Shown here piece by piece: positions 699 to 62,264 of a DNA stretch of 64,000 bases. Origin of the DNA: Oscillospiraceae bacterium (lineage in GTDB: Bacteria > Bacillota > Clostridia > Oscillospirales > CAG-272). Every line of letters starts with the position of its first letter. Within the stretch, counting starts at the first letter, position 1. A model generated the notes under the pieces. It had not been told where the DNA came from, searched no databases, and saw only the letters and a program-made list of their open reading frames with translations. The stretch is from the NCBI GenBank assembly GCA_015064845.1, contig SVRL01000002.1, forward strand, positions 10,508-74,507. Direction: 5' to 3'. The translations under genes were made by a program, and so were the position numbers.

Positions 699-735
699 CA
701 AGAATAAGAAATAGTGTTACGGAAAGGAAAACAAT

Positions 736-1665
736 ATGAAAATTTATTCTTCGGTTTACGAATTGATCGGAAAAACGCCTTTGATTGCGCTTGACCGATA
801 TGCAAAGGAATACGGATGTTACGCACGGATTCTTGCCAAAGCGGAGAGCTTTAATCCTGCCGGTTCGGCAAAGGACCGCGTTGCAAAAGAAATGATTGAG
901 GATGCGGAAAGAACGGGAAAACTGACTGCGGATTCCGTGATGATTGAACCGACGTCGGGAAATACGGGAATCGGTCTTGCCGCGATTGCCGCCGCAAAAG
1001 GATATCGCTTAATCATTACCATGCCGGAAACCATGTCGGCAGAACGTCAAATGCTTATGCGCGCATACGGAGCGGAACTGATTCTGACCGACGGAGCAAA
1101 AGGTATGGCAGGCGCGATTGCAAAAGCAGAGGAGCTTGTCGCTTCTTTGCCGAATGCTTTTGTGGTGGGACAGTTTACCAATCCCGCCAATCCCGAAGCG
1201 CACAGAAAAACAACGGGGCCGGAAATCTGGGAGGATACCGACGGAAAAGTAGATATTTTCGTTGCGGGCGTTGGTACGGGCGGTACGGTTACGGGTGTCG
1301 GCGAATATCTGAAAACAAAAAATTCCGCAGTAAAAGTGATTGCGGTTGAACCTAAAGATTCCCCCGTGCTTTCGGGCGGCCAAGCGGGAAAACACGACTT
1401 GCAGGGAATCGGCGCAGGCTTTGTTCCCGAAATTCTGAATACGGAAATTTATGATGAAATTTTTCCCGTCAGTACGGAACAGGCATATTTCTGTGCGCGT
1501 ATGCTTGCGAAAAAGGAGGGATTGCTTGTCGGTATTTCCTCGGGTGCGGCTTTGTACGCCGCAACGGAAATCGCAAAACGAGCAGAAAATGGAGGGAAAA
1601 ATATCGTTGTTCTTTTGCCCGATACAGGCGAGAGATATCTTTCTACGGCACTATTTTCTGAGTAA
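736..1665 (+). CDS. cysK: Cysteine synthase A (O-acetylserine sulfhydrylase)
   Basis: 309 aa. Has the PLP-lysine region NPAGSAKDR, the TSGNTGIGLA loop and GTGGT motifs typical of CysK/CysM. SD aaagga. Confidence 0.95.
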   Translation: MKIYSSVYELIGKTPLIALDRYAKEYGCYARILAKAESFNPAGSAKDRVAKEMIEDAERTGKLTADSVMIEPTSGNTGIGLAAIAAAKGYRLIITMPETMSAERQMLMRAYGAELILTDGAKGMAGAIAKAEELVASLPNAFVVGQFTNPANPEAHRKTTGPEIWEDTDGKVDIFVAGVGTGGTVTGVGEYLKTKNSAVKVIAVEPKDSPVLSGGQAGKHDLQGIGAGFVPEILNTEIYDEIFPVSTEQAYFCARMLAKKEGLLVGISSGAALYAATEIAKRAENGGKNIVVLLPDTGERYLSTALFSE

Positions 1666-17015: not shown

Positions 17016-17388
17016 AAAACCGATCGTCCTGTAAGCCGGGTTCTGTCGAGAACAATCATCTATCTTTGCCTTTTGTTGCCAAAAGGCTCATAAGGGTTTC
17101 CCCTTACTGCCACCGCGCATAGAGCTTTCGCTCGGTCGGGCAAACCAAATCTGCGGGGTGTTGCTTCGGATAGGGTTTACATGGCACAGGCAGTTACCTG
17201 TCTGTCGGTGAGCTCTTACCTCGCCTTTCCATCCTTACCGCGTAAAGCGGCGGTTTATTTCTGTTGCACTTTCCCGGGAGTCGCCTCCGGCGGACGTTAT
17301 CCGTTATCCTGCCCTGTGAAGCCCGGACTTTCCTCACGATAATACCTTTCGGCAACATATCGCGCGATTGTTCGGCACGGTCGGTTTT
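17016..17388 (-). ncRNA. rnpB: RNase P RNA, bacterial type A
   Basis: The minus strand reads GAGGAAAGTCCGGGCTTCACAGGGCAGGATAAC (CR-I, plus 17321-17335), AGTGCAACAGAAATAAACCGCC, GGTAAGAGCTCACCG, and ACAGAACCCGGCTTA (CR-V, plus 17032-17046). A P1 helix forms between aaaaccgaccgt and acgatcggtttt. It is colinear with E. coli M1 RNA as I recall it. Ends are +/-10 nt. Confidence 0.92.
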
Positions 17389-19921: not shown

Positions 19922-19924
19922 TTT

Positions 19925-19959
19925 GCAATTCGTGCACGAAAAAATGCGATTCGTGCACG
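19925..19959 (+). promoter_or_regulatory. Direct-repeat operator, predicted LytTR binding site
   Basis: GCAATTCGTGCACG (19925-19938) and GCGATTCGTGCACG (19946-19959), start-to-start 21 bp, ending 3 bp before the -35. Confidence 0.5.
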
Positions 19960-19962
19960 TTT

Positions 19963-19991
19963 TTGTTTTTTTCATTTTTTCATGCTATACT
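19963..19991 (+). promoter_or_regulatory. Activator-type promoter of the ABC exporter pair
   Basis: Weak -35 TTGTTT (19963-19968), 17-bp spacer, TGcTATACT (-10 at 19986-19991). Confidence 0.45.
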
Positions 19992-20027
19992 AAAGATGCA
20001 AAAACACATCCAAAGGAGGTATTTGAT

Positions 20028-21866
20028 TTGAAAAAGAACATGAAAAAGAAACCATACCGTTCCGTATTCAGTAATGCGATATGGGCATTTCGCCATCAAC
20101 TGAAATTTGCGCCGAAGTCATTTTTGCTTTTGATGTTGGGAATTCCGCTTGCCGTTGCGCAAAGCTATATGGGGATTCTGTTGCCTTCTCTTGTTGTAAA
20201 AGAAGTAACGGCAGGTTCTGCACTCACAAACGTGGCTGTCAGCGTAGGATTGCTTATGCTCTCGATTTTCCTTTGCAAAATGCTTGGACAGGCTTTTTCC
20301 TATATGCAGGAAGGATATCTTTCGAATTACCGCTGGAGTATTTCGGAAATAATCGATCAAAAAGCACTCGGCTGTTTCTATCAGCAATTTGAGAAAAAAG
20401 AAGTGCGAGACCTTCATGAGCGGGCAACGAAAACGACGCAAATGTGGAACGGCGTACAGCCGATTTCGGATATGCCGAGGTACACAGCGGAACTGATTAT
20501 CAACGTACTGAGCTATCTTTTGTTTGGTTCGGTGGTTTCATTGGTTCATCCGCTTCTCGTTCCGATCTTGACGGTTGCTCCTATTGTAAACTGGGTTTGC
20601 GTACGCGCTTACAATAAATGGGAATATGCCAATCGGGATAAATGGACGGATACTTCCCGTAAGCTTTGGTACGTGCGGACGAAGCCTGCCGACTTTGCGG
20701 CAGGAAAGGATATTCGGCTTTACGGTATGATGGACTGGTTTATCGATATGTTCAAGTCCTTAAACCGTGAATACGCGGTATGGGATAAACAGCGCGTCGG
20801 ACGAAAGTTTCTCTCCGGAATTGCGAATCTCTTCATTATTCTTATCCGAGACGGCGCTGCTTATGTGCTTTTGATTGCAATGACGCTTCGCGGCGAAATT
20901 ACCGTAGATGAATTTGTTTTATATTTTGCCGCCATTTCTTCTTTTGCGGGCTTTATCGGGGGAATTCTCGGAAGTTGGAATCATTTGCAAGCCACAAGTC
21001 TTTCTCTTTGCGATTTACGTGAATTTCTGGATTTGCCCGAATATGACGGAACGGGAGAAGAATCGATCACGGAGCATTTGGCGTATGCGCCCGAAATTAC
21101 CTTTGACCATGTTTCCTTTCGATATGACGGCGCAGAAAACGATACGCTTCATGAGATTTCCTTTACTGTGAAAGCGGGCGAAAAAATTGCTCTTGTCGGA
21201 TTGAACGGTGCCGGTAAAACAACCATTGTCAAGCTTTTGTGCGGACTTTATACGCCAACCTCCGGCGAAATTCGTTTGAATGGGATTCCTCTTTCCAAAT
21301 TTTTGAGAAAAGATTACTATAAGCTTTTTTCTCCCGTATTTCAAAATATCAAAACGGCTTATTTTTCTTTGGGAGAAACGGTTTCCGGAGTCGTTGGAAA
21401 AGATTATGACCGTGAAAAAGCAGAATTATGTATGCGCCGCGCAGGATTGGGAGAAAAACTGGAGTCTTTACCTATGGGGCTTGACACAAAACTCGATAAA
21501 CAGGTCAACGAAAACGGCATTGAGCTTTCGGGAGGCGAATTGCAGAAAATGATGCTTGCCAGAGCGCTTTATAAGGATGCGCCAATGCTGGTACTGGACG
21601 AACCGACAGCGGCGCTGGACCCCATTGCGGAAAGTGAAATTTATCAACAATATCAAAGCATGACAAGCGGAAAAAGCGCTGTTTTTATCTCCCATCGTTT
21701 GGCTTCTACTCGTTTTTGCGACAGAATTCTATATCTTGAAAACGGAAAGATCACGGAAGAGGGTACACATGAAACTTTGATGCATAAAAAGGGACGGTAT
21801 GCAGAGCTTTTCGATATTCAAAGCTGTTGGTATCGGGATGATTTCGGAAAGGAGAATATGAAATGA
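20028..21866 (+). CDS. ABC exporter, fused permease/ATPase (heterodimer subunit 1)
   Basis: AGGAGG (20014-20019) lies 8 nt upstream of an in-frame TTG at 20028 (alternative ATG at 20040). Has six TM segments, then Walker A GLNGAGKT, signature LSGGE and Walker B LVLDEP. Confidence 0.9.
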   Translation: MKKNMKKKPYRSVFSNAIWAFRHQLKFAPKSFLLLMLGIPLAVAQSYMGILLPSLVVKEVTAGSALTNVAVSVGLLMLSIFLCKMLGQAFSYMQEGYLSNYRWSISEIIDQKALGCFYQQFEKKEVRDLHERATKTTQMWNGVQPISDMPRYTAELIINVLSYLLFGSVVSLVHPLLVPILTVAPIVNWVCVRAYNKWEYANRDKWTDTSRKLWYVRTKPADFAAGKDIRLYGMMDWFIDMFKSLNREYAVWDKQRVGRKFLSGIANLFIILIRDGAAYVLLIAMTLRGEITVDEFVLYFAAISSFAGFIGGILGSWNHLQATSLSLCDLREFLDLPEYDGTGEESITEHLAYAPEITFDHVSFRYDGAENDTLHEISFTVKAGEKIALVGLNGAGKTTIVKLLCGLYTPTSGEIRLNGIPLSKFLRKDYYKLFSPVFQNIKTAYFSLGETVSGVVGKDYDREKAELCMRRAGLGEKLESLPMGLDTKLDKQVNENGIELSGGELQKMMLARALYKDAPMLVLDEPTAALDPIAESEIYQQYQSMTSGKSAVFISHRLASTRFCDRILYLENGKITEEGTHETLMHKKGRYAELFDIQSCWYRDDFGKENMK

Positions 21867-23686
21867 AGCTCAGAGAACATATTTCCATTGCAAAACGCGC
21901 CGTAAAAATGGTGTTTAGCCAAAGTAAGGCGTTTGCCGTTTGTACGATGCTGAATGCTTTTCTTGCGGCAATTATGCCTTATGTTCCGATTTGGTTTTCC
22001 GCTGAACTGATCGATGCGCTTTTTGCAAAAGCGCCCGTAGAAACTCTGATTTTCTATGTGATGCTTACGGTTGGCACGGTATTTTTACTTCAACTTTTGA
22101 AAACTTATGTCTCTCATCAAAAAGATATTTCTTCCTCGGTCATATATCGTATGGAGGATTGGCAATATGCGGAAAAAGCAATGAAAATGGCATATGAATC
22201 CATTGAAAGCAGAGATGTGCAGCTGCTTAGAAACCGCATTCGCATGGAGACACAGACGGGATATAATCGCTTTTATCTTCATATGTGTATGGAATATGCG
22301 GTACGCTATACCACGGAGATTGTTTGTTCTCTTGCACTTACGGTTTCTTTTTTTACGAACCAAACGATTCCGCTTTATATGAAGCTCGGTCTGCTGGCGC
22401 TTCTTACCTTGACCATTGTCTGCAATATCGTATTGACGGCAAAGCAGAAAAAGGAGGACGGGAATTTTTTTGAGGATAACGTGGTCATGATGAATACGGT
22501 CGGAGAAAAATATTCTCAATATATTGGAGATTACAGCGCAGGCATGGATATCCGTCTTTATCAGATGACGGAGGATATTGTGGAAAGTCAGAGTCGCTTA
22601 AATCGGGAACATACGAAAAAAAGTCTTTTGCTTTACAAAAAAATGACGGCGTTATCCATACCTCAAGTGTTTTTGAATCATGCTTTGCAATATATGACGT
22701 ACCTTGTTTTGATCGTTGGAGCAATCGCTGGCGGTATTTCCGTCGGTTCGATTGCAAAATACGTGTCTTGTATCATGATGATGCTGACTTCCATTTCCAA
22801 ATTGGTTACCATGTTTCAGATTTCCATCGTGAATGACGGTTATCTGAAAAGGTATTTTTCTTATTTTGATATTCCGAACAAGATGTATCAAGGGTCGCTT
22901 ACCGTTGAAAAACGCGACGATAACGAATATTATGTGGAATTCAGAGATGTATCTTTCAAATATCCCAACAGCGATGTTTGGGCGCTCCGTCACGTCAATT
23001 TAAAATTTAAGATAGGAGAAAAGCTGGCGGTTGTCGGCATGAACGGTTCGGGAAAAACCACGTTTATCAAGCTTCTTTGCCGTCTTTACGATCCAACCGA
23101 AGGCGAAATTCTTCTCAACGGTGTCAATATCAAAAAATATGATTATGATGAATATATGTCTGTTTTTTCCGTTGTTTTTCAGGATTACCGTTTATTTGCC
23201 TTTACCCTCGGACAAAACGTGGCGGCGAATACGGATTATGATGAAGAGCGCGTGAAGCATTGTTTGCATCAAGCAGGCTTCAAGGAGCGTTTGGAAACCT
23301 TGCCGAACGGTACGGAAACGTATCTTTTCAAGAATTATGATAAAAACGGCATTGAATTTTCGGGCGGAGAAACGCAGAAAATTGCGTTGGCAAGAGCGCT
23401 TTACAAAGATGCACCGTTCATCATTCTGGATGAACCCACAGCCGCGCTGGATCCTGTTTCCGAATATGAGGTTTACAGTAACTTTAATCGGATTTCGGGA
23501 GAAAAGACTGCGATTTATATCAGCCACAGGCTTGCTTCCTGCCGTTTTTGCGATAAGATTGCCGTGTTTGACCACGGTGAAATTATCCAAAGCGGTTCAC
23601 ATGATACGCTCGTTGACGATAAAAAAGGCAAATATTACGAATTATGGCGTGCACAAGCACAGTATTATACAGAACAAACGGTATAA
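21863..23686 (+). CDS. ABC exporter, fused permease/ATPase (heterodimer subunit 2)
   Basis: ATGA start/stop overlap with subunit 1. Has Walker A GMNGSGKT, signature FSGGE and Walker B IILDEP. Confidence 0.9.
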   Translation: MKLREHISIAKRAVKMVFSQSKAFAVCTMLNAFLAAIMPYVPIWFSAELIDALFAKAPVETLIFYVMLTVGTVFLLQLLKTYVSHQKDISSSVIYRMEDWQYAEKAMKMAYESIESRDVQLLRNRIRMETQTGYNRFYLHMCMEYAVRYTTEIVCSLALTVSFFTNQTIPLYMKLGLLALLTLTIVCNIVLTAKQKKEDGNFFEDNVVMMNTVGEKYSQYIGDYSAGMDIRLYQMTEDIVESQSRLNREHTKKSLLLYKKMTALSIPQVFLNHALQYMTYLVLIVGAIAGGISVGSIAKYVSCIMMMLTSISKLVTMFQISIVNDGYLKRYFSYFDIPNKMYQGSLTVEKRDDNEYYVEFRDVSFKYPNSDVWALRHVNLKFKIGEKLAVVGMNGSGKTTFIKLLCRLYDPTEGEILLNGVNIKKYDYDEYMSVFSVVFQDYRLFAFTLGQNVAANTDYDEERVKHCLHQAGFKERLETLPNGTETYLFKNYDKNGIEFSGGETQKIALARALYKDAPFIILDEPTAALDPVSEYEVYSNFNRISGEKTAIYISHRLASCRFCDKIAVFDHGEIIQSGSHDTLVDDKKGKYYELWRAQAQYYTEQTV

Positions 23687-24230: not shown

Positions 24231-24967
24231 ACATTTCGGGAAGCGGATATATCCCCGCAGGGGAATACAATGAAAACATTTCTATCAGCGGAAGCGGTAA
24301 AATCAACGGCAATTTGCGTTGTTTATCGATTTCCTGTTCCGGCTCCACAAAATCAGAAGGCAGCGTGTTTTGTAACGGGGACTTCAAATGCTCCAGTTCG
24401 GCTCATCTTAAAAAAGAATTACACGCAAAAAATATTACTACAAGCGGTTCTCTTCGGGTGGAAGACAATATTTTCTGCGAAAATATTGTCCGTGTTGCGG
24501 GAGGTATGGTTTGCAAAGGCAAATTGAAATCCGGTTCGGTTAGTTGCGCCGGAAGCATTGAGATTTCGGGAGATCTGGAAGCGGAAGAGTTTAAGTCGGC
24601 AGGAAAACTGATCTGCGGAGGTCTGCTGAATGCCGAAAAGATCAGTATTTCTCTTGACGGCACGAGCGGAAGCGTCGGCAGTATCGGAGGAAGTGAGATC
24701 AAGATTTACTGGGACCCGAAGAAACCCCGATCAAAAAAACTCGGTCGTATGCCCTTGTTTTCCAAATTGGTCAATGAAGGCACCGGCTGTTTCGTTGTTG
24801 AAGAACAGATCGAAGGCGATATGGTGGCAATCGAATGTGTGAAAACGCCGAAAGTTGTCGGCAGAGTGGTTGCGATCGGCGCAGATTGCGAAATTGACCT
24901 TGTGCAATACACCGAAGAAATTGAAGTACATCCCGATGCCAAGGTCGGTAAGATTGAAAAAATATAA
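24227..24967 (+). CDS. Bactofilin-like polymer-forming (beta-helical repeat) protein
   Basis: ATGA overlap with the yhbD-like gene. Has Gly/Ser-rich short beta-strand repeats ([35 protein letters not shown]). The synteny mirrors yhbD-yhbE-yhbF. Confidence 0.65.
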
Positions 24968-24971
24968 ATAT

Positions 24972-24996
24972 AAAAAGCGGGCATTGCCCGCTTTTT
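24972..24996. terminator. Bidirectional terminator between the bactofilin-like gene and the convergent lipoprotein gene
   Basis: aaaaa-gcgggc-att-gcccgc-ttttt. Confidence 0.85.
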
Positions 24997-25035
24997 ATAT
25001 TCGAAATCTCATTCTTTCGCTTAAATATACAATGG

Positions 25036-32225: not shown

Positions 32226-34154
32226 TCAATTTTTCGGAACGTAAATGCGGAGCGCGTTGATATCCGCATAGGAAAGCGCGGATGCTTCGCCTGCGGCAGC
32301 GATATTGAATGCACGATAGTTGTAGGAACCCCACCAAGCATCGTCAACGATAACGGTGGCTGCGTTTGTAACGTCGGGGCGTGCCGCATTGGAAACGGTA
32401 AGATCGGTCCAGCCTTCGGGACGGTATTCATAACCGGATTTCAAGGAAATTACGGTGCCGTTGGGAAGGTCGGTTTTATCGAAGATCTGTGTTGCGATGT
32501 ACTTGGGAAGTGCATCGGAGCTGTAAGTTTTGCCGTAATACAAACCGGAAGCGTTTGTGGATTTGTAGAATGCCGCGAGTGTCAGATCGAGATTCAAAAC
32601 CTGATAAGCGGAAGCATCCTTGCCTGCGGCAGAGAGAACAGCAATGTCTTCCTGTGTCAGGGCAGAATATTTTTCAAATTTAGGTGTCTTTTTGGGCACG
32701 TAAATGCGGAGCTTATCCAAGTCAGATTCTTGCAATTCCGTATTTGCGGTAGTAGATTTCAAATTGAAAGCGCGATATTGGAAAATATTCCACCAAGCAT
32801 CGTCAACGATCGTTGTTTGTGTGGATTTTTGAGGAGCAAGGTTTGCAGGAGTTCTCTGTCCGAGACTAATCCATGCTTCGGGACTGAATTCATAACCGGG
32901 AGCAATGGAAATGATTGAACCAACGGGAAGCTGATCGCGTGTAAAGATATTGGAAGCGGCGTTATAGGGGAGAGATTTGTTGGTGGGTGAAAGCTTAACA
33001 TTCAGTTTCTTTGAATGGTTTGTGCAGGAGTAAAGTGAACGAAGTTCCATATCCAGATCCAGAACAAGATAATCATCAGGGTTATAGCCGAGTGCGATGA
33101 TCGCTTGTTTATCAGCATCCGTCATTTCTTCGGTAACGATGGGCTTTTTGGTATAAATGGAAGGTGTAACCGTCAGAGGATTTTTGATTGCTTGATTGAC
33201 GGCATAGGCAATTGCGGCTTGGTCTTCCGCGATTTTCGGATAATCTTCGGGTACCCAATCGATATATCTGGCATCGATACCGGTAAAGAAGGAGAACCAT
33301 GTGAGCGCGGTTGTATATCTGCCGATATCCAAGCTCATATGATAACCGTCTCGGGTAATTGCGTCATCCAGATAGGATGTGCGCAGGTTTTGAACGGCAG
33401 TGCCTGAGGGAATTGCGCCGCTGATCAGATCATATTTTGCTACGTGATCATTGAAAGTGGAAATGATGGCGTTATACATTTGCATCTGGCTGTTTCCGTA
33501 AGCGGGGAAGCCTGTGTGGGAAGAAGAGAACTGGTATGCCCAGGTTGAATGCCAATAAATTTTTGCGTCGGCATTCGTTTTATTGGTGTTGATATAATTC
33601 AGAATGTTCTGGAGATTGCCGAGCGTATTCGGATTACCGCTGTCCTGGCTGACCTGTTGAACGGTAATGTAATCCCAGTCTTCCAATTTAAGTGCATGAA
33701 GAATGGATTTTTCTTTATTTGTTTCCCATTTTCCGCTCTTGTTATAATAGAATGTATACTTTTCAGCGTTTTTACTCATATTTTCCCAATGGGTATCAAG
33801 AGAACAACCGCCAATATAAAGGTTGCCGATGACAACTTCGTCAATTCCTGCATCGTGGAAAATATCCCAAAGATATTGCGTTGCATCTTCGCTGAAACTG
33901 TTGCCGATTGCAAGAATTTTAATGGATTGGGGAATGGTTTCGGGTTGTTGCATGGGTTCTTCTGTGACGGAAGATTCTTCCGTTTCGGAAGAAGAAGTGG
34001 ATTCCGAAGAGGAAGAGGATTCAGAAGAGGAAGAGGAGGTGGATTCTCCGTTAGGGGTGCTTTCAGAGGTGTTATTTGCGTTGTTGTTCGAACAGCCGCA
34101 GAAAAGTACTGCCGCCATGCAGAAGACGAGGACGAAGCAAAGTAAGCGTTTCAT
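32226..34154 (-). CDS. DUF4886-family lipoprotein with a Ser-rich linker and a duplicated C-terminal module
   Basis: 642 aa. The lipobox is LFCG-C. The linker is SSSSSESSSSSESTSSSETEESS. The ILAIGNSFSEDA motif is present. Two ~140-aa repeats each end in LRIYVPK(K/N). Confidence 0.8.
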   Translation of the reverse strand: MKRLLCFVLVFCMAAVLFCGCSNNNANNTSESTPNGESTSSSSSESSSSSESTSSSETEESSVTEEPMQQPETIPQSIKILAIGNSFSEDATQYLWDIFHDAGIDEVVIGNLYIGGCSLDTHWENMSKNAEKYTFYYNKSGKWETNKEKSILHALKLEDWDYITVQQVSQDSGNPNTLGNLQNILNYINTNKTNADAKIYWHSTWAYQFSSSHTGFPAYGNSQMQMYNAIISTFNDHVAKYDLISGAIPSGTAVQNLRTSYLDDAITRDGYHMSLDIGRYTTALTWFSFFTGIDARYIDWVPEDYPKIAEDQAAIAYAVNQAIKNPLTVTPSIYTKKPIVTEEMTDADKQAIIALGYNPDDYLVLDLDMELRSLYSCTNHSKKLNVKLSPTNKSLPYNAASNIFTRDQLPVGSIISIAPGYEFSPEAWISLGQRTPANLAPQKSTQTTIVDDAWWNIFQYRAFNLKSTTANTELQESDLDKLRIYVPKKTPKFEKYSALTQEDIAVLSAAGKDASAYQVLNLDLTLAAFYKSTNASGLYYGKTYSSDALPKYIATQIFDKTDLPNGTVISLKSGYEYRPEGWTDLTVSNAARPDVTNAATVIVDDAWWGSYNYRAFNIAAAGEASALSYADINALRIYVPKN

Positions 34155-39090: not shown

Positions 39091-39183
39091 CAATTTTATA
39101 TAAAAAATCACATAATGTTCATATTCTGTTCATAAATGTGCTATATACTTTTGAATATAAAAACAATTTACGGGAGGTATTTT

Positions 39184-42150
39184 ATGCTTACACTGAAGGA
39201 TATTCATAAAGATTATCCTGCCGGCGATATAAAAGTGGCGGCGCTTCGCGGCGTTTCCATTTCTTTCAGAAAGAGTGAGTTCGTTTCCATTCTCGGTCCC
39301 TCCGGATGCGGAAAAACAACTTTGCTGAACATTATCGGCGGACTCGATCAATATACAAGCGGCGACCTTGTGATTGACGGAAGATCTACAAAAAATTTCA
39401 AGGATGCGGATTGGGACGCTTACAGAAACCATTCGATCGGTTTCGTATTTCAAAGCTATAATCTGATTCCGCATCAAAGCGTGCTTTCCAACGTTGAGCT
39501 TGCGCTGACCATTTCGGGCGTTTCCAAATCGGAACGCCGCCGCAGAGCAAAAGAGGCTTTGGAAAAGGTTGGACTCGGAAGCGAACTGAATAAGCGCCCG
39601 AACCAGATGTCGGGCGGACAAATGCAGCGCGTTGCCATTGCGAGATCGCTGGTCAATAATCCCGAGATTTTGCTTGCGGACGAGCCGACGGGCGCGCTCG
39701 ATTCGGAAACCAGCGTGCAGATCATGGAGCTTCTCAAAGAGATTGCGAAAGACCGTCTGGTTATTATGGTTACGCACAATCCCGAACTTGCCGAAACGTA
39801 TTCCACGCGAATCATCCGCATTATCGACGGTAAGATCATCGGCGATACGAATCCTTACGAAGAACCGCAGGAACAAGCGGCTGAACAGGAAGCAACCGTA
39901 CAGACAAAAAATAAAAAAGAAAAGCGTCTTAGAAATCGCTCCATGTCTTTCGGAACGGCTCTTGCGCTTTCATTGAACAATTTGCGCACGAAAAAAGGAA
40001 GAACCATTTTGACAAGCTTTGCAGGTTCCATTGGTATCATCGGTATTGCTTTGATTCTTGCTATTTCCAACGGCGTGACAAATTATATCAACCGCGTGCA
40101 GGAAGATACGCTGTCCAGTTATCCGATTACCATTCAAAAGGAAACGGCGGATCTTTCCAGCATTCTTACAAACCTGATGGGTTCTAATACATCCTCCGAT
40201 CAAGGCGGTTTGAAACATGGTCTGGATGCCGTTTATGCAAACCGCGTGATGTATGAACTTCTGGATACGCTTGCCAATATAGAAGTTCAGACCAATAACC
40301 TCAAAGCATTCAAGCAATATATTGAAAGTACGCCCGGTTTCCAAGAGTTTGCGAGTGCGATCGACTATTCATATGCATTGGATTTTCATATTTATACGAA
40401 AGATAAAGATGGATCCATCATAAAATCCGATATCAGTGCCTTGATGAAAGAACTGATGGGAATGAATTCGACTTCGTCTGATGATCTTGGTATGTTTGTA
40501 AGCTATAATATATGGGAAGAAATGCTGAAAGGCAAAGACGGAGAACTGATTAACCCGCTTTTCTACGATCAGTATGATTTGATTCACGGTTCTTGGCCGA
40601 CGGCGTACAATGAAATCGTTCTCGTTGTGGATGAAAATAACGAAATCAGCGACGTCGTGCTCTATTCTCTCGGTTTGAAGACCACGGAGGAAATGCGTGA
40701 AGAATTGAAGCAGTCTATGGAGGGCAATTTGGAAAATATGCCTACCGAGAGCTGGTCTTATGAAGAAATTTGCAGTATGACCTTCAAGATGATCTTGCAT
40801 CCTGATTTTTATCAGAAAAATGAAAAAGACGGTACGTACAGCAATCTCAGTACAACCCAAGCGGGTATTGAGGTTCTTTATAATTCCGATAAACCCATAG
40901 AATTGAAGGTTTCGGGTATTATCCGTCCCAATGAAGATACTGTAGCTTCCATGCTGAAGGGTTCTATCGGTTACACAACTGCTTTGACGGAATATGCTAT
41001 CCAACGCGCAGCAGAAAGCGAAATCGTAAAAGCGCAGCTTGCAAATCCCGGACAGGATATTTTTGTAGGACTTCCTTTCAAAACGGGTGATGCGGAACTT
41101 TCCGCTGCGGAAAAAGCAGTTTTGATCAAAGAATATTTTGCTTCTCTTTCCACAGAAAAAAAAGCGGAGATTTATATTGACATCAAATCCAAAATCCCCG
41201 CGGATATGCTGGAGACGATGACCGAGATGGCTTTGGCGCAGTATTCCGAGGAAGATTTGCGCAAGCTGGCTGTTCAGGCTTATGCGGAGCAGATGGGTAT
41301 TACCGATACAACCGAAATCGAAAAGCATATCAATGCAATGAGCAAAGAAGAATTGGTTGAGGCAATGAGAGAAGGTATTTCCAATGAGGTTGCGGCGCAG
41401 TATGAGGCGGCTATGCGCGCTCAGCTCGGCGCACAGCCTGCCGAAGTTCTTGCAGGGCTTTTCGATCTTGAAACCTTTACGGAAGAACAGTATGCGGAAT
41501 TTTTCGATCTCTATATGCCTCCCACACATTCCGATTCCACATATGAATACAATCTTTCCAAGCTTGGTTACGTGGATTTGGATTCGCCGACTGCTATCAA
41601 TATCTATACCGCCACATTTGCGGATAAAGACGAAATTTCTGCTTTGATTACGGAATATAACAACAAGGTTTCCGAGGATGACAAAATCAATTATACGGAC
41701 TTTGTTGCTCTCCTCATGAGTTCCATCACTCTGGTTATTAATGCGATTTCTTATGTGTTGATTGCGTTTGTCAGCGTATCGCTTGTGGTTTCTTCCATTA
41801 TGATCGGTATCATTACCTATATTTCCGTATTGGAAAGAACCAAAGAAATCGGTATTCTCCGTGCAATCGGCGCTTCCAAGAAGGACATTTCCCGTATTTT
41901 CAATGCGGAAACAGCGATTGTCGGTTTCACAGCGGGTATGATGGGCATTGGTGTTACCTTGATTCTTATCATGATTGCAAATCCCATTCTCCATGCGGTT
42001 ACGGGTATCGGCATTCTGAATGCAAGTCTTCCTGTTCTCGGCGCGGTCATTCTTGTGGCTCTCAGCGTCGGTCTGACGTTGATTGCAGGTCTTGTTCCTT
42101 CCCGACTTGCGGCAAAGAAAGACCCCGTTGTTGCATTGCGTACAGAATAA
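39184..42150 (+). CDS. MacB-like fused ABC ATPase / FtsX permease with a very large extracytoplasmic domain
   Basis: 988 aa from the ATG at 39184 (GGGAGG upstream). Has Walker A GPSGCGKTT, signature MSGGQ and Walker B LLADEP. One TM is followed by ~550 aa of soluble sequence, then three C-terminal FtsX TMs. Confidence 0.85.
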   Translation: MLTLKDIHKDYPAGDIKVAALRGVSISFRKSEFVSILGPSGCGKTTLLNIIGGLDQYTSGDLVIDGRSTKNFKDADWDAYRNHSIGFVFQSYNLIPHQSVLSNVELALTISGVSKSERRRRAKEALEKVGLGSELNKRPNQMSGGQMQRVAIARSLVNNPEILLADEPTGALDSETSVQIMELLKEIAKDRLVIMVTHNPELAETYSTRIIRIIDGKIIGDTNPYEEPQEQAAEQEATVQTKNKKEKRLRNRSMSFGTALALSLNNLRTKKGRTILTSFAGSIGIIGIALILAISNGVTNYINRVQEDTLSSYPITIQKETADLSSILTNLMGSNTSSDQGGLKHGLDAVYANRVMYELLDTLANIEVQTNNLKAFKQYIESTPGFQEFASAIDYSYALDFHIYTKDKDGSIIKSDISALMKELMGMNSTSSDDLGMFVSYNIWEEMLKGKDGELINPLFYDQYDLIHGSWPTAYNEIVLVVDENNEISDVVLYSLGLKTTEEMREELKQSMEGNLENMPTESWSYEEICSMTFKMILHPDFYQKNEKDGTYSNLSTTQAGIEVLYNSDKPIELKVSGIIRPNEDTVASMLKGSIGYTTALTEYAIQRAAESEIVKAQLANPGQDIFVGLPFKTGDAELSAAEKAVLIKEYFASLSTEKKAEIYIDIKSKIPADMLETMTEMALAQYSEEDLRKLAVQAYAEQMGITDTTEIEKHINAMSKEELVEAMREGISNEVAAQYEAAMRAQLGAQPAEVLAGLFDLETFTEEQYAEFFDLYMPPTHSDSTYEYNLSKLGYVDLDSPTAINIYTATFADKDEISALITEYNNKVSEDDKINYTDFVALLMSSITLVINAISYVLIAFVSVSLVVSSIMIGIITYISVLERTKEIGILRAIGASKKDISRIFNAETAIVGFTAGMMGIGVTLILIMIANPILHAVTGIGILNASLPVLGAVILVALSVGLTLIAGLVPSRLAAKKDPVVALRTE

Positions 42151-42233
42151 AAGCGGCGAATCGCCGCGGATGGTTGCTTGCCTATCCAAGTTTCATCCGT
42201 ATTCAAACAATGCAAAACGGCAAGGTTGATTTT
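42151..42233 (+). repeat. Structured intergenic repeat, copy A
   Basis: aaaagcGGCGAATCGCCGCGGATGGTTGCTTGCCTATCCAAGTTTCATCCGTATTCAAACAATGCAAAACGGCAAGGTTGATTTT. It abuts the ABC stop codon. Confidence 0.8.
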
Positions 42234-42250
42234 GGGCAATATCATATAGT

Positions 42251-42336
42251 AAAAAATCGGCGAATCGCCGCGGATGGTTGCTTGCCTACCCAAGTTTCGT
42301 TTGTATTCAAATAATGCAAACGGAGAAGCTGTTTTT
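42251..42336 (+). repeat. Structured intergenic repeat, copy B
   Basis: aaaaaatcGGCGAATCGCCGCGGATGGTTGCTTGCCTACCCAAGTTTCGTTTGTATTCAAATAATGCAAACGGAGAAGCTGTTTTT. It starts 104 bp after copy A. Confidence 0.8.
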
Positions 42337-42373
42337 GCGCAACTACCCATATCTTAAAAAGAATAAAGAACGG

Positions 42374-42412
42374 AAAACCCGAAGAAATTTTGAATTTCTT
42401 CGGGCTTTCGTT
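42374..42412. terminator. Terminator downstream of the convergent 42413..42985 gene
   Basis: 12-bp stem cccgaagaaatt / aatttcttcggg, with U-rich flanks on both strands. Confidence 0.75.
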
Positions 42413-47797: not shown

Positions 47798-47813
47798 GAG
47801 AATTTACAGAAAA

Positions 47814-47957
47814 TTATTTTTTGTTTTCGCACTTCTGGTTAGCAACGCCGCAGGATGTTTTGCAAGCAGACTGGCAAGAAGTCTGGCATTCGCCGCAGCC
47901 ACCATTGTTTACGGTTTTAACGATATCTTTGGTTTCGATGGTTTTGATTCTGGTCAT
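47814..47957 (-). CDS. scfA: SCIFF (six-cysteines-in-forty-five) ranthipeptide precursor
   Basis: My translation is MTRIKTIETKDIVKTVNNGGCGECQTSCQSACKTSCGVANQKCENKK*. It contains the GGCGECQTSCQSACKTSC core. GGAGG lies 9 nt upstream. It is below the ORF-track cutoff. Confidence 0.9.
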   Translation of the reverse strand: MTRIKTIETKDIVKTVNNGGCGECQTSCQSACKTSCGVANQKCENKK

Positions 47958-48015
47958 GATTTAATACCTCCGTAATATAATAATCTCTTACAGCCGATGC
48001 TGTTTTTGTGCTATT

Positions 48016-48044
48016 ATTTTATCACAAATAGACTTAAATGTCAA
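48016..48044 (-). promoter_or_regulatory. Promoter of scfA
   Basis: On the minus strand: TTGACA (48044-48039), 17-bp spacer, TAAAAT (48021-48016). Confidence 0.6.
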
Positions 48045-48079
48045 GAATCATCATGAAACTTTTTGAAAAGTGTATAAAC

Positions 48080-49273
48080 TTATTTTCTTGCGGAAACAAT
48101 TTTTTCTGTTTCTCTTGCAATCATCAATTCTTCGTTGGTGGGAATTACGTAAACCTTGGTTTTGGAACCGGGTTTGGAAATTTCCGTAGCGCCTGCATCG
48201 TTTGCTTCTTTGTCAAAATCGATGCCGTAGAATTCCATGTCTTTGCAAACACGTTCACGCATAGCTGCGTTGTTTTCGCCGATACCTGCGGTAAAGACGA
48301 TCGCGTCAACACCGTTCATAGCGGCAGTGTAAGAACCGATATATTTTTTGATACCGTAAGCGAGAATGTTGCAAGCAAGAGCAGCTTTTTCGTTGCCTTC
48401 CTGAACGCCGGCTTCAATTTCACGCATATCGGAGCTGATGCCGGAAACGCCGAGCAGACCGCACTTCTTGTTCAAGAAGTTGCTCATTTCGTCAGCGGTA
48501 TAGCCTTCCTTATTCATGATGTATGTAACGACAGCAGGGTCAATATCGCCGCAACGAGTACCCATTTCAAGACCTGCAAGGGGAGTGAAGCCCATGGAGG
48601 TATCTATGCATTTGCCGCCCTTGACAGCAGTGATGGAAGAACCGTTACCGATGTGGCAGGTAATGATCTTGGTTTCTTCGATGGGTTTGCCGAGCACTTT
48701 TGCCGCTTCGTTTGCAACGTAGCAGTGGGAGGTGCCGTGGAAGCCGTAACGGCGGATGCTGTATTTTTCATACATTTCGTAGGGAATTGCATACATATAA
48801 GCGTAATCGGGCATGGTTTTGTGGAAAACTGTGTCGAATACGATTACCTGGGGAACGTTCGGCATAACTGCGGTGCAACCCTGAATACCCATGATGTGGG
48901 GACCTGTGTGAAGGGGAGCGATTTCACGGCAAAGTTCGAATCTGTCCATAACGTCGCCTTCGATATAAACGTTATCGGAGAAGTAGTTACCGCCGTGAGC
49001 AGCTCTGTGGCCGACTGCTTCGATTTCGCTCATATCCTTGATGCAACCGATTTCGGCATCTGTCAGGGTATCAACGACGATCTGAATGGCAACAGAGTGG
49101 TTGGGCATGGGAATATCGCGTTCGAATTTATCGCCGACTTCGTTCTTATGTGCGATGTGTCCATCGATACCAATACGTTCACAAACACCCTTTGCAAGAA
49201 CCTTTTCTGCGGCGGTGTCCATGAGTTGGTATTTGAGAGAAGAGCTACCGGCATTTACAACAAGTACATACAT
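48080..49273 (-). CDS. ackA: Acetate kinase
   Basis: 397 aa from the ATG at 49273. GGAGG abuts the ORF-track ATG at 49282 but is 9 nt from this one. The N-terminus is VLVVNAGSSSLKYQL and it is full-length AckA-like. Confidence 0.95.
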   Translation of the reverse strand: MYVLVVNAGSSSLKYQLMDTAAEKVLAKGVCERIGIDGHIAHKNEVGDKFERDIPMPNHSVAIQIVVDTLTDAEIGCIKDMSEIEAVGHRAAHGGNYFSDNVYIEGDVMDRFELCREIAPLHTGPHIMGIQGCTAVMPNVPQVIVFDTVFHKTMPDYAYMYAIPYEMYEKYSIRRYGFHGTSHCYVANEAAKVLGKPIEETKIITCHIGNGSSITAVKGGKCIDTSMGFTPLAGLEMGTRCGDIDPAVVTYIMNKEGYTADEMSNFLNKKCGLLGVSGISSDMREIEAGVQEGNEKAALACNILAYGIKKYIGSYTAAMNGVDAIVFTAGIGENNAAMRERVCKDMEFYGIDFDKEANDAGATEISKPGSKTKVYVIPTNEELMIARETEKIVSARK

Positions 49274-49437
49274 TTGAATCATCCTCCATGATTTATATAT
49301 TTATATTGATTTTATTGAGAATTTACAGTATATTATTATTATACAGGATTTTTCTTTCGATTTCAATAGGTATTTTCCCACATAATCAAAGATTTTTTAT
49401 AAATATTTATATGTATTTTGAATATTTTGGAGATTTT

Positions 49438-50616
49438 ATGAAAATTTATGCCGTTATCTGTGAATATAATCCTTTTCATCTCGGGCATGCTTATCAACTT
49501 TCCGAAATGAAACAGAAAGGCGCCGTGGTTTGTGTGATGAGCGGAAGTTTCACGCAACGCGGCGATGCTGCCGTTCTTTCCAAATATGACCGCGCGGAAC
49601 TTGCTGTTCGTTCGGGTGCGGATCTGGTTCTGGAACTGCCTTTTCCGTATTCCTCCGCTTCTGCTGAAATTTTCGGAAGAGCGGGGGTGCGCATTGCCGA
49701 TGCGCTCGGCTGTGTGGATACGCTTTGCTTCGGAAGCGAAACGGGTAATACCGATGCACTGGTTTCTCTTTCAGAACGTTTGCGCGCGGAAGCGTTTCAA
49801 AATGCGCTTTCCGATTATCTTCTGAAACATGAAAATTGTTCGTACAGAACATCTGTAGGTACGGTTTACCGTCTTTGTTACGGAGAAGAATTTCCGCAGA
49901 GTGGTTCCAATGATATTTTATCGCTCTCCTATCTTGCCGCGCTCAAAGTGCTGGATTCCGATATTATCCCACTTGCGCTGGGGCGGAAGGGTGAGAATTA
50001 TAACGGCGGCGGCGAGGGATTTGCTTCCGCCACAACGCTCAGGCGGCATATTGTCTGTCGGAATTGGGATTTTGTTTTTCGCAATGTCCCCGAACCGACC
50101 GCGAATATGCTTGTTCACGGCGCGGAAAACGGAAGACTTGCCGATTCCGGAAAGCTGTTTTTGCTTTTTGCTTCACTTGTCCGTACACGCGGAGAAAGTC
50201 TCTTTGAAAATGTCTATGACGTTTCCGATGAACTTGCTGTCCGCCTTTGCAAAGCGGGAATGAAAGCAAAAAATGCGGATGAATTTTTTGCGCTTTCCAT
50301 TTCCCGAAACGATTCGATGTCCCGTGTCAGACGTGCGGTTCTCAGTACTTTGATGGACGTGAAAAACGATGACGTCGGTACAGTTCCTTATACCTCGGTT
50401 TTGGCGGCGAATGAAACGGGCAGAAAAATTTTATCCGCAGTTCGCAAAACGTCGTCGATTCCGATCATCACGAAGCCTGCCGATGCATGGAAATACGGGG
50501 ACAACGTTGCTCACGCCGCAAAGCTTTGCGCAAATGCGGACAGCGTTTGGGAATTGCTTTGCGATACGCCGAGAGAAGGAAATGCTATGATAAAGGAAAA
50601 GCCGAGAATGCTTTGA
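49438..50616 (+). CDS. tmcAL: tRNA(Met) cytidine acetate ligase (YlbM/TmcAL family nucleotidyltransferase)
   Basis: 392 aa from the ATG at 49438 (GGAG upstream). The N-terminus is MKIYAVICEYNPFHLGHAYQL...VMSGSFTQRGDAAV...ELPF. The upstream ORF-track extension is AT-rich noncoding sequence. Confidence 0.85.
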   Translation: MKIYAVICEYNPFHLGHAYQLSEMKQKGAVVCVMSGSFTQRGDAAVLSKYDRAELAVRSGADLVLELPFPYSSASAEIFGRAGVRIADALGCVDTLCFGSETGNTDALVSLSERLRAEAFQNALSDYLLKHENCSYRTSVGTVYRLCYGEEFPQSGSNDILSLSYLAALKVLDSDIIPLALGRKGENYNGGGEGFASATTLRRHIVCRNWDFVFRNVPEPTANMLVHGAENGRLADSGKLFLLFASLVRTRGESLFENVYDVSDELAVRLCKAGMKAKNADEFFALSISRNDSMSRVRRAVLSTLMDVKNDDVGTVPYTSVLAANETGRKILSAVRKTSSIPIITKPADAWKYGDNVAHAAKLCANADSVWELLCDTPREGNAMIKEKPRML

Positions 50617-56022: not shown

Positions 56023-56213
56023 AATAAATTCTCCGTTTTTGATTGATATTCTTTTCTCATCATATGCAAGGGCTTTTTTTCTGTGAACAGTCTCTGAAAA
56101 GAAGATTTTTGAATCATGGAAATATGCGCAAATCAGATCCGCGATCGAATTTGGTTCCAAGTTTTCAAAAACTGAATTACGGCGGCAACTTCCGACGGGC
56201 ATTGCCCGCTTTC

Positions 56214-62106: not shown

Positions 62107-62160
62107 GTAATCATCCTTTCTTGACAATTATTTGTAATGTATTCGGAAATTGCGTAATTT

Positions 62161-62240
62161 AAATCTCGCCGTTTGCGTTGTTTCGATACAAGAAAACTTG
62201 GATAGGCGAGCAACCATCAGCGGCAATTCGCCACTTTTTT
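62161..62240 (-). repeat. Structured intergenic repeat, copy C (inverted relative to copies A and B)
   Basis: The minus strand reads aaaaaagtGGCGAATTGCCGCTGATGGTTGCTCGCCTATCCAAGTTTTCTTGTATCGAAACAACGCAAACGGCGAGATTT. Confidence 0.8.
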
Positions 62241-62255
62241 ACCGATATCAAAACC

Positions 62256-62264
62256 ATTATATCA
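62256..62264 (-). promoter_or_regulatory. Extended -10 promoter upstream of repeat copy C and the DUF1385-prmC operon
   Basis: The minus strand reads TGaTATAAT (62264-62256). There is no good -35. Confidence 0.5.

Follow-up and report, generated by a model that had tools for sequence, protein, structure and literature searches.

A gene for an ABC-ATPase/FtsX-permease fusion occupies positions 39136-42150 of the window (the whole 64,000-nt stretch analysed here), and directly after its stop codon stand two direct units of a structured repeat, A and B. Both units are placed between the ABC gene and its native terminator, beyond which lies a convergent gene for a 190-aa protein. A repeat search of the window returned a direct pair spaced 104 nt apart with 88% identity over 76 nt, and an inverted match between 42149-42193 and 62194-62238 with 91% identity. 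A 22-nt degenerate core pattern matched only units A, B and C in the window, where shuffles expect 0.00 matches. Together these searches confirm the tandem pair with a 104-nt period and the inverted copy 20 kb away that a sequence-only reading of the window had described. The three copies counted there are real but a fourth, diverged unit at 56113-56209 (W56) was missed, so the window holds four units: A and B direct, C inverted and W56 diverged. Unit C is found between secG with its terminator and the DUF1385-prmC operon, in the same orientation as those genes. W56 lies between the divergent promoters of adh_short (+; a perfect TTGACA-16-TATAAT) and an amidase gene (-; TTCACA-17-TATGAT) and is thus outside any 5' or 3' UTR. 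Coordinates are given in Table 1.

Table 1. Positions of the repeat units, their helices and their flanks in the window.
Feature	Position	Strand	Remarks
Left A-rich flank AGAATAAAA	42144..42152	+	Includes ABC stop TAA (42148-42150); left flanking direct repeat
Unit A, short form	42153..42249	+	Covariance-model match 106.8 bits
Unit A P1	42153-42158:42162-42167	+	Helix
Unit A P1 on opposite strand, GCGGCGATTCGCCGC then TTTTATT	42153..42167	-	Terminator-like; likewise unit B, 42258-42270
Unit A P3	42177-42182:42219-42224	+	CTTGCC:GGCAAG
Unit A P4	42199-42202:42210-42213	+	Helix
Unit A right end	within 42153..42249	+	Reads ...GGGCAATATCATATAG
A/B spacer, A-rich 7-mer TAAAAAA	42250..42256	+	About the size of a target duplication
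Unit B	42257..42353	+	Covariance-model match 91.4 bits; P1 42258-42262:42266-42270
TTAAAA tail, then AGAATAAAG	42354..42368	+	Right flanking direct repeat
Bidirectional intrinsic terminator (predicted), native	42373..42409	.	Common to the ABC gene and the convergent 190-aa gene
W56, fourth diverged unit	56113..56209	-	Found with a profile from more copies; covariance-model match 72.6 bits
W56 left target-site duplication TCAAGAAA	56210..56217	-	Right counterpart TCAAAAA, 56106-56112
Unit C	62137..62234	-	Covariance-model match 94.1 bits
Unit C P1	62229-62234:62220-62225	-	Two G.U pairs
Unit C P3	62205-62210:62165-62170	-	CTCGCC:GGCGAG

Other direct repeats in the window have a different character. 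A 133-nt repeat (21511-21643 and 23343-23475, 74% identity) in adjacent paralogous ABC-transporter genes (19923-21866 and 21863-23686) is gene paralogy, unrelated to the structured repeat. Two direct-repeat pairs 459-462 nt apart (32304-32468 and 32763-32930; families D4 and D6, 70-79% identity) probably reflect internal domain duplication in coding sequence.

Once longer flanks were aligned, similarity among the window copies was found to span about 105 nt, followed by another A-run. The unit itself is about 97 nt long and extends in the 3' direction through ...UUUGCGCAAUUUCCUAUAG, longer than the roughly 80 nt first proposed. It is bounded by GCGGCGAAUCGCCGC... and ...GCAAUUUCCUAUAG. Its polarity is fixed: a 6-bp GC hairpin at the left (P1) leads into a conserved, single-stranded GCUGAUGGUUGC, then P3 around a variable hairpin, and finally the conserved right end UUUGCGCAAUUUCCUAUAG. 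The short-form core measures 90-93 nt in 12 copies, and a long form of about 120 nt carries one extra hairpin (P1b) with its own compensatory change. Between P1 and ...AAACGG, alignment of A with B gave five substitutions and one indel, matching the earlier hand count of about six differences in 66 core positions.

Some 15 further copies were found outside the window (in L024, L043, L047, L052, L056, L060, L074, L081, L087 and L088), in related metagenome contigs and a goat-cecum MAG, so the search for additional copies proposed alongside the sequence-only reading was successful. A pattern scan of a genome collection with one genome per species gave 15 stretches against about 17 estimated chance matches. 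Two were inspected: L024, a goat-cecum Clostridia MAG, is the one confirmed true relative, and L018 was rejected as a chance match inside coding sequence. Scanning metagenome contigs with another part of the conserved half yielded seven loci with copies (L043, L047, L052, L056, L060, L074 and L081), about 50 of the 58 matches being chance hits in GC-rich coding DNA. Viral contigs gave no match to the pattern and hence no sign of phage origin. Orthologous loci of related species were retrieved via DUF1385 and ABC homologues, which added the copies in L087 and L088; no copy was present in the loci retrieved as L085, L086, L089-L094 or L095-L097. The family sample is small, some 360 kb of lineage DNA having yielded about 19 copies. 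Some 57 kb of the closest sampled relative (92% identity in ABC, 86-91% in DUF1385) is free of copies, as is about 105 kb of more distant relatives, while every 21 kb of the species at 80-83% identity holds 2-3 of them. The distribution is thus narrow and patchy, within a clade of uncultured ruminant-gut Ruminococcaceae/Clostridia.

Two gene neighbourhoods in these loci were also recorded. Genes for TIR_2 and DUF6273 proteins stand between the iPGM and ACPS genes in L085 (4824-5897), L086 (5285-6817) and L087 (3390-6689) and are missing from that position in the window strain (L001); the stretch looks like a defence-like variable island. At about 47800-49770 of the window (L007 17236-18770), a 33-aa ORF adjoins a radical-SAM/Fer4_12 gene; the two are a SCIFF peptide-maturase pair, given the annotation of the small ORF as SCIFF (PF13165) in relatives.

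The fold of the unit was assessed with a hand-curated structure of P1, P3, P3b and P4 on a 12-copy alignment. Paired cells amounted to 83% of this alignment, against 31-48% with the partners slid. Double-sided changes occurred in seven pairs and none of 500 shuffles reached the covariation score, bearing out the covariation that the sequence-only reading had suspected. Both P1, the 5' hairpin, and P3, the long-range helix, show compensatory changes among copies. P1 occurs as GCGGCG/CGCCGC, GUGGGC/GCCCAC, GCGGAC/GUCCGC, GCGGGC/GCCCGC, GCGGGC/GCCCGU and GUGGCG/UGCCGC, and P3 as CUUGCC/GGCAAG, CUCGCC/GGCGAG, CCGCCG/CGGCGG and UCUCCG/CGGAGA. W56 combines a GCGGGC-AAU-GCCCGU P1 with a P3 of the CCGCCG type, and the L088 copy at 1649-1726 has the P3 UCUCCG:CGGAGA. 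The long-range helix had been placed correctly in unit A and its counterpart read correctly in unit C. Its proposed conservation stands across copies but fails in unit B, where GGAGAAG replaces the GGCAAG of A and breaks P3. The inner GTTT...AAAC hairpin (P3b, GUUU:AAAC) is compatible with the alignment but without double changes, and so does not covary. A further long-range helix, GGUUG:CAAUU, was 90% compatible but likewise without double changes and was not adopted.

RNAalifold on MAFFT alignments recovered P1 only, with equal energies on both strands. P3 is missed because it shifts register between subfamilies, and it was for this reason that the helices were curated by hand. Strand-specific G.U pairs, counted on the strand originally read and on the opposite strand, were 3:1 in P1, 2:0 in the long-form hairpin P1b, 1:2 in P3 and 3:6 in P4.

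Whilst the ends of the unit are conserved, its middle is variously deleted, expanded or chimeric. The L047 copy keeps both ends within 62 nt and lacks P3 and P4, and copy L087b lacks the 3' arm of P1. Unit B has a 5' half near-identical to that of A and a 3' half from another subfamily (GGAGAAG). In L074 a tandem pair has the same architecture as A and B, including the 7-mer spacer, but shows the reverse pattern of like and unlike halves. W56 and L087b occupy one orthologous site yet belong to different subfamilies, as is the case for sites occupied in two species. Such mixing of halves and subfamilies indicates a mosaic family, as expected for recombining repeats. Insertion has also reached a coding sequence: in L088 (20175-20195, minus strand) a YggS-type (Ala_racemase_N) gene runs into a repeat unit and takes its stop from the conserved UGA of GCUGA, so its C-terminus is remodelled by insertion.

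Comparison with close relatives gave six filled/empty sites, at which the same flanking genes are present and the unit is missing. The units are therefore inserted DNA and not a conserved gene. At the ABC 3' end the ABC gene, terminator and convergent gene are all shared, but the spacer is 50-67 nt in L095-L097 against 263 nt in the window, and the terminator at 42373-42409 is present in these relatives without units. L095 reads ACAGAATAAAG up to the junction and AGCAAAAAATTGCCCGAAG... after it (beginning AGC...), running straight into the same terminator. In L097, AGAATAAAA is followed by AGAATAGAG with nothing in between. L096 carries CATTATAAAAAAT followed by CTTAAAAA; these match the tails at the right ends of A and B, whereas neither core is present. 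The core of unit C is missing from the otherwise conserved DUF1385 leader in L085-L088. Conversely, L087 has two copies, one in a HAD leader and one in a 190/187-aa spacer, where the window strain and others have orthologous spacers without a unit. The amidase/185-aa spacer holds a 5'-truncated copy in L088 and right-end remnants of about 20 nt in L001 and L086. Finally, the adh_short/amidase spacer of L086 provides a clean empty allele, ATGTCAAGAAA followed at the junction by TCTTC, with one TCAAGAAA.

At this last site, exact TCAAGAAA flanks the unit on both sides in L087, and the window has TCAAGAAA on one side and TCAAAAA on the other. There is thus an 8-bp target-site duplication at the W56 site, which the sequence-only reading did not see. 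Matching non-A bases in both flanks were also present for copy D, L043, L081, the L074 dimer and the A+B dimer; for the last of these, the 9-mer AGAATAAAA of the left flank is seen again at 42360-42368 and is single in L095. A clean naive empty allele is available at the adh_short/amidase site only. Other empty alleles carry right-end remnants (L096, the DUF1385 leaders, and L001 and L086 at the amidase/185-aa site), so insertion and loss are not always separable and the length of the duplication may be anything from 4 to 10 bp depending on site. The possibility that the A-run is part of the element was rejected, as empty sites already contain it.

The landing sites are A-rich 7-9-mers that become duplicated when the unit inserts. 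They often belong to an A-run of a 5' leader or to the A-tract that immediately precedes a terminator hairpin. Of 16 left flanks, 13 had five or more A among their final 8 nt and none was T-rich. As these flanks are A-rich on the element's own strand, the orientation of insertion is coupled to the polarity of the target. Unit C follows this pattern in the DUF1385-prmC leader: it is 3' of an extended -10, TGATATAAT (about 62256-62264), and was inserted after the A-run at 62235-62243, in the loop of a leader hairpin. This small hairpin, AUCGG...CCGAU with the A-run in its loop, is found in the leader throughout the clade (window 62235-62250 and 62137-62145, minus strand; about 9900-9990 in L085-L088). 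The 'empty' DUF1385 leaders of relatives contain a CC(G/C)TAT box and a second A-run resembling the right end of the repeat, which may be the footprint of an old copy or a preferred target.

Because P1 invariably comes to lie against the A-rich flank, the opposite strand reads a hairpin followed by a U-run, a predicted intrinsic terminator that had also escaped the sequence-only reading. A terminator scan of that strand predicted terminators at 42167-42153, 42270-42258 and 56196-56208. Elsewhere in the window, an ordinary bidirectional terminator at about 24950-25000 (AAAAAGCGGGCATTGCCCGCTTTTT) has a stem identical to one P1 variant and gave a weak covariance-model match; the match at 24950-24994 was rejected as a repeat copy for being an ordinary terminator. 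The resemblance suggests that P1 mimics or derives from host terminators.

On the opposite strand every unit ends in a GC hairpin and 4-7 U, and most units then stand just downstream of a gene and its terminator. Both features would suit an sRNA gene of about 100 nt ending in its own intrinsic terminator (P1 plus U-run) and present in tandem as paralogous sRNAs are, and the P4 wobble counts of 6 against 3 lean to the same strand. The empty sites reveal, however, that the U-run belongs to the native target DNA and does not travel with the element. The other end of the unit lacks a conserved promoter, reading P1 of copy C on this strand gives two C.A mismatches, and RNAs from C and L060 would run antisense to the neighbouring gene's leader. 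Insertion polymorphism and mosaicism apply here too, making such a gene extremely unlikely.

Searches for a known identity of the units gave little. The sequence-only reading had recognised no tRNA or riboswitch and had seen no ORF and no terminal inverted repeats; the Rfam check and our own searches agree with it on all counts. At the gathering threshold only RNase P was matched in the window, at 17016-17384 on the minus strand (bacterial class A, full length, 247 bits), an ordinary housekeeping RNA. Permissive Rfam scans matched only the neighbouring terminator in the A/B region and nothing on the elements at six other loci. In L047 an AdoCbl-II riboswitch gave a sub-threshold match (708-808, minus strand; 24.9 bits against a gathering threshold of 36.5, E = 0.04) about 400 nt from the repeat copy, to which it is probably unrelated. 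The units contain no ORF: a small frame from the conserved AUG of GAUGGUUGC was rejected since indels between copies shift it. The right end (TTGCGC..TATAG) was likewise rejected as a promoter on its hexamer spacing of 7 or 13 nt, and promoter scans found no sigma-70 site in the A/B region.

These results bear on the suggestion, made from the sequence-only reading, of a BOX/REP-type repeat or a small-RNA family. A regulatory or cis-acting RNA on the strand originally read (a 3'UTR sRNA, a leader element or a riboswitch-like aptamer, in tandem for dosage) would account for the compensatory changes in P1 and P3. It also fits the strand on which the long-form hairpin and the P1 of both C and W56 form G.U pairs. 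Similarly, D, B, L060 and L087c have a -10-like hexamer immediately 5' to the A-run, and C, L060 and L087c are in 5' leaders in sense orientation. By contrast, the orthologous conservation of such an RNA is lacking, with six orthologous loci in close relatives devoid of units (L085-L088 and L095-L097), and W56 is upstream of both flanking promoters and so outside UTRs. Copy B is chimeric with a broken P3, L047 has dispensed with P3 and P4 whilst keeping its ends, and W56 and L087b place different subfamilies at an orthologous site. The downstream genes are unrelated (DUF1385, XRE, HAD), the evidence from G.U pairs is mixed, with P4 wobble counts favouring the other strand, and no Rfam family matches. 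A regulatory RNA is thus very unlikely. The dispersed, insertion-polymorphic structured repeat remains from the original suggestion and its small-RNA half is unsupported.

We then considered how the repeat compares with known mobile elements. It is small, non-coding and multi-copy with filled and empty sites (a 90-93 nt core, about 19 copies and six sites) and has a target-site duplication, as a MITE would. Terminal inverted repeats are nonetheless absent: local alignment of the left end with the reverse-complemented right end scored 6 at best, over no more than the P3 arm, and 335 of 2000 shuffles scored as well. Standard DDE transposition is a poor fit, since insertion is TIR-less, makes a duplication and occurs in a single orientation. 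No gene that could mobilise the units was found, the window and retrieved loci encoding housekeeping genes only. The window and all retrieved loci are free of genes for a transposase, an HUH protein or a reverse transcriptase, and Y1_Tnp and OrfB genes are missing from every gene table of the examined loci. Neither a longer element nor an autonomous IS with the same ends was present among the metagenome matches to the left-end pattern or in about 360 kb of lineage DNA.

The lack of TIRs, a conserved GC hairpin at one end and oriented insertion 3' of an A-rich motif would also be expected of a hairpin-dependent ssDNA element of the REP or IS200-IS605 (PATE) kind, in which a HUH Y1 transposase (RAYT or TnpA) recognises P1 and inserts 3' of that motif. 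Hairpins kept by compensatory changes with no clear RNA strand preference are consistent with this. Peel-and-paste transposition, however, makes no target duplication, whereas an exact 8-bp one is seen. P1 abuts the flank, so that a guide sequence would not fit 5' of the hairpin foot, and a terminal hairpin occurs at the left end only, the right end having no related counterpart. All units are direct, in contrast to the alternating units of BIMEs, and no Y1 or TnpB gene was found in the lineage DNA. We regard a HUH element as highly improbable.

A SINE-like retroposon would move as a transcript of the strand originally read, its reverse transcription being primed where the T-rich strand at an A-tract is nicked and leaving a variable A-rich duplication. 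Target-primed retroposition would jointly explain the lack of TIRs, the polarity-matched A-rich duplications, the remnants that keep a 3' end and the head-to-tail arrays. Orientation is indeed coupled to the A-rich target strand and the duplications seem variable in length; the 5' end is lost and the 3' end kept in L088 1649-1726, in L001 and L086 at the amidase/185-aa site, in L096 and in the DUF1385 leaders. Such 5'-truncated remnants can nevertheless be ordinary deletions. A consistent A-tail is missing between the conserved 3' end and the duplication (L087b, W56 and D), no reverse transcriptase is near any copy, and L097, in which two repeat copies stand side by side without an insert, resembles the footprint of an excision, and retroposons do not excise. 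No SINE-like retroposon is known from bacteria, which also counts against this reading, and we consider it very improbable. It is the extreme form of a broader idea, namely that the repeat moves by a strand-asymmetric mechanism undescribed for small bacterial repeats; the extreme form would use target-primed reverse transcription at A/T tracts, and a milder form would be an oriented DNA element whose hairpin makes an antisense terminator beside the A-tract. Movement of this sort is unlikely but would be new.

Among named families, the repeat appears closest in behaviour to the pneumococcal SPRITE and BOX elements. SPRITE, BOX and RUP were set against the unit by behaviour and published description (PMC3049150). 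SPRITE is likewise a small non-coding interspersed repeat of a Firmicute with a terminator-like hairpin and terminal A/T runs; it favours CDS 3' ends and convergent gene pairs, has no IS with matching ends, is confined to a narrow clade and is a presumed parasite co-transcribed with its neighbours. SPRITE is, however, AT-rich (28% GC), with one 18-bp duplex and then a long U-rich tract on the same strand, and its minimal TIRs are AAAA/TTTT; it has yielded neither an empty site nor a TSD (PMC3049150). The two share no sequence relationship. In the window unit it is only on the opposite strand, and in combination with the target A-run, that the GC hairpin is terminator-like. Its two flanks form a direct duplication that is A-rich on one and the same strand, and both an 8-bp TSD and empty sites are on record.

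BOX of S. pneumoniae (boxA-boxB(n)-boxC) resembles the repeat as a structured intergenic element of about 100-200 nt, co-transcribed with neighbours, with conserved ends, a modular or mosaic middle and clustering. BOX elements have TIRs resembling ISSpn2 and a defined grammar of A/B/C modules (PMC3049150), whereas our repeat has neither TIR nor modules and its arrays consist of whole units with a target-size spacer. MITEs (Correia/CREE, RUP and QMITE; PMC10969869, PMC2229807) are also small, ORF-less and multi-copy, with TSDs, filled/empty polymorphism and predicted RNA structure. They differ in the TIRs that define them; in the window repeat the hairpins are local and not formed between two ends, and orientation-specific insertion at an asymmetric A-rich target is not predicted by symmetric DDE transposition.

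YPAL/RU-2 of Yersinia (De Gregorio et al. 2006, summarised in PMC2229807) is 168 bp long, not AT-targeted and found in Gammaproteobacteria. As described there, it too lacks terminal TA/TIR ends and has internal inverted repeats, variable-size duplications and targets beside dyad symmetry, its mobility being inferred from filled and empty sites. The sequences are unrelated, and no A-tract polarity is reported for YPAL/RU-2. REP/BIME sequences with RAYT (PMC2817692) are GC-rich extragenic hairpins near gene ends, in high copy and without TIRs. REPs are single palindromes of 20-40 nt with a conserved 5' tetranucleotide, alternate in BIMEs and make no TSD (PMC2817692), in contrast to a unit of about 97 nt with several elements, direct orientation and a TSD. 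The repeat thus belongs to the known class of small structured interspersed repeats but to no named family.

Taken together, we consider it probable (about 0.75) that A and B are two copies of a non-coding, non-autonomous, oriented and TIR-less mobile repeat, selfish in appearance, and not a conserved sRNA gene or riboswitch. Under this mobile-repeat reading, the tandem pair would have arisen by a second insertion into the A-rich duplication beside the first unit, so that a single 7-mer now separates the two. Both conserved ends would be cis sites for mobilisation by an enzyme encoded elsewhere, and P1 and P3 may be kept since master copies need them. The hairpins could act as folded single strands in mobilisation, or render a co-transcribed insert harmless. 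Each insertion is predicted to act as a one-way terminator against antisense read-through, which may explain why insertions are tolerated beside convergent genes. The units would be carried passively in 3' or 5' UTRs and are not expected to be trans-acting RNA genes.

For the host, the effects on neighbouring genes are probably modest: the 3' UTR of the ABC transporter would become longer, and the DUF1385-prmC leader would gain about 90 nt. The repeat family, from uncultured rumen Clostridia, had not been catalogued before; it matches nothing in Rfam, and searches gave no homologue beyond a narrow clade. Recognising it as a mobile repeat guards against its annotation as an sRNA or riboswitch in MAGs. 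It combines features in an unusual way, having no TIRs but a real target duplication, strict A-tract polarity and a hairpin predicted to make the flanking A-run an opposite-strand terminator. Should the polarity stem from the mechanism of insertion, the repeat would point to a hitherto undescribed route by which short DNA moves in bacteria. Should it instead reflect selection, the repeat would be a natural 'portable one-way terminator' that reshapes 3' and 5' UTRs.
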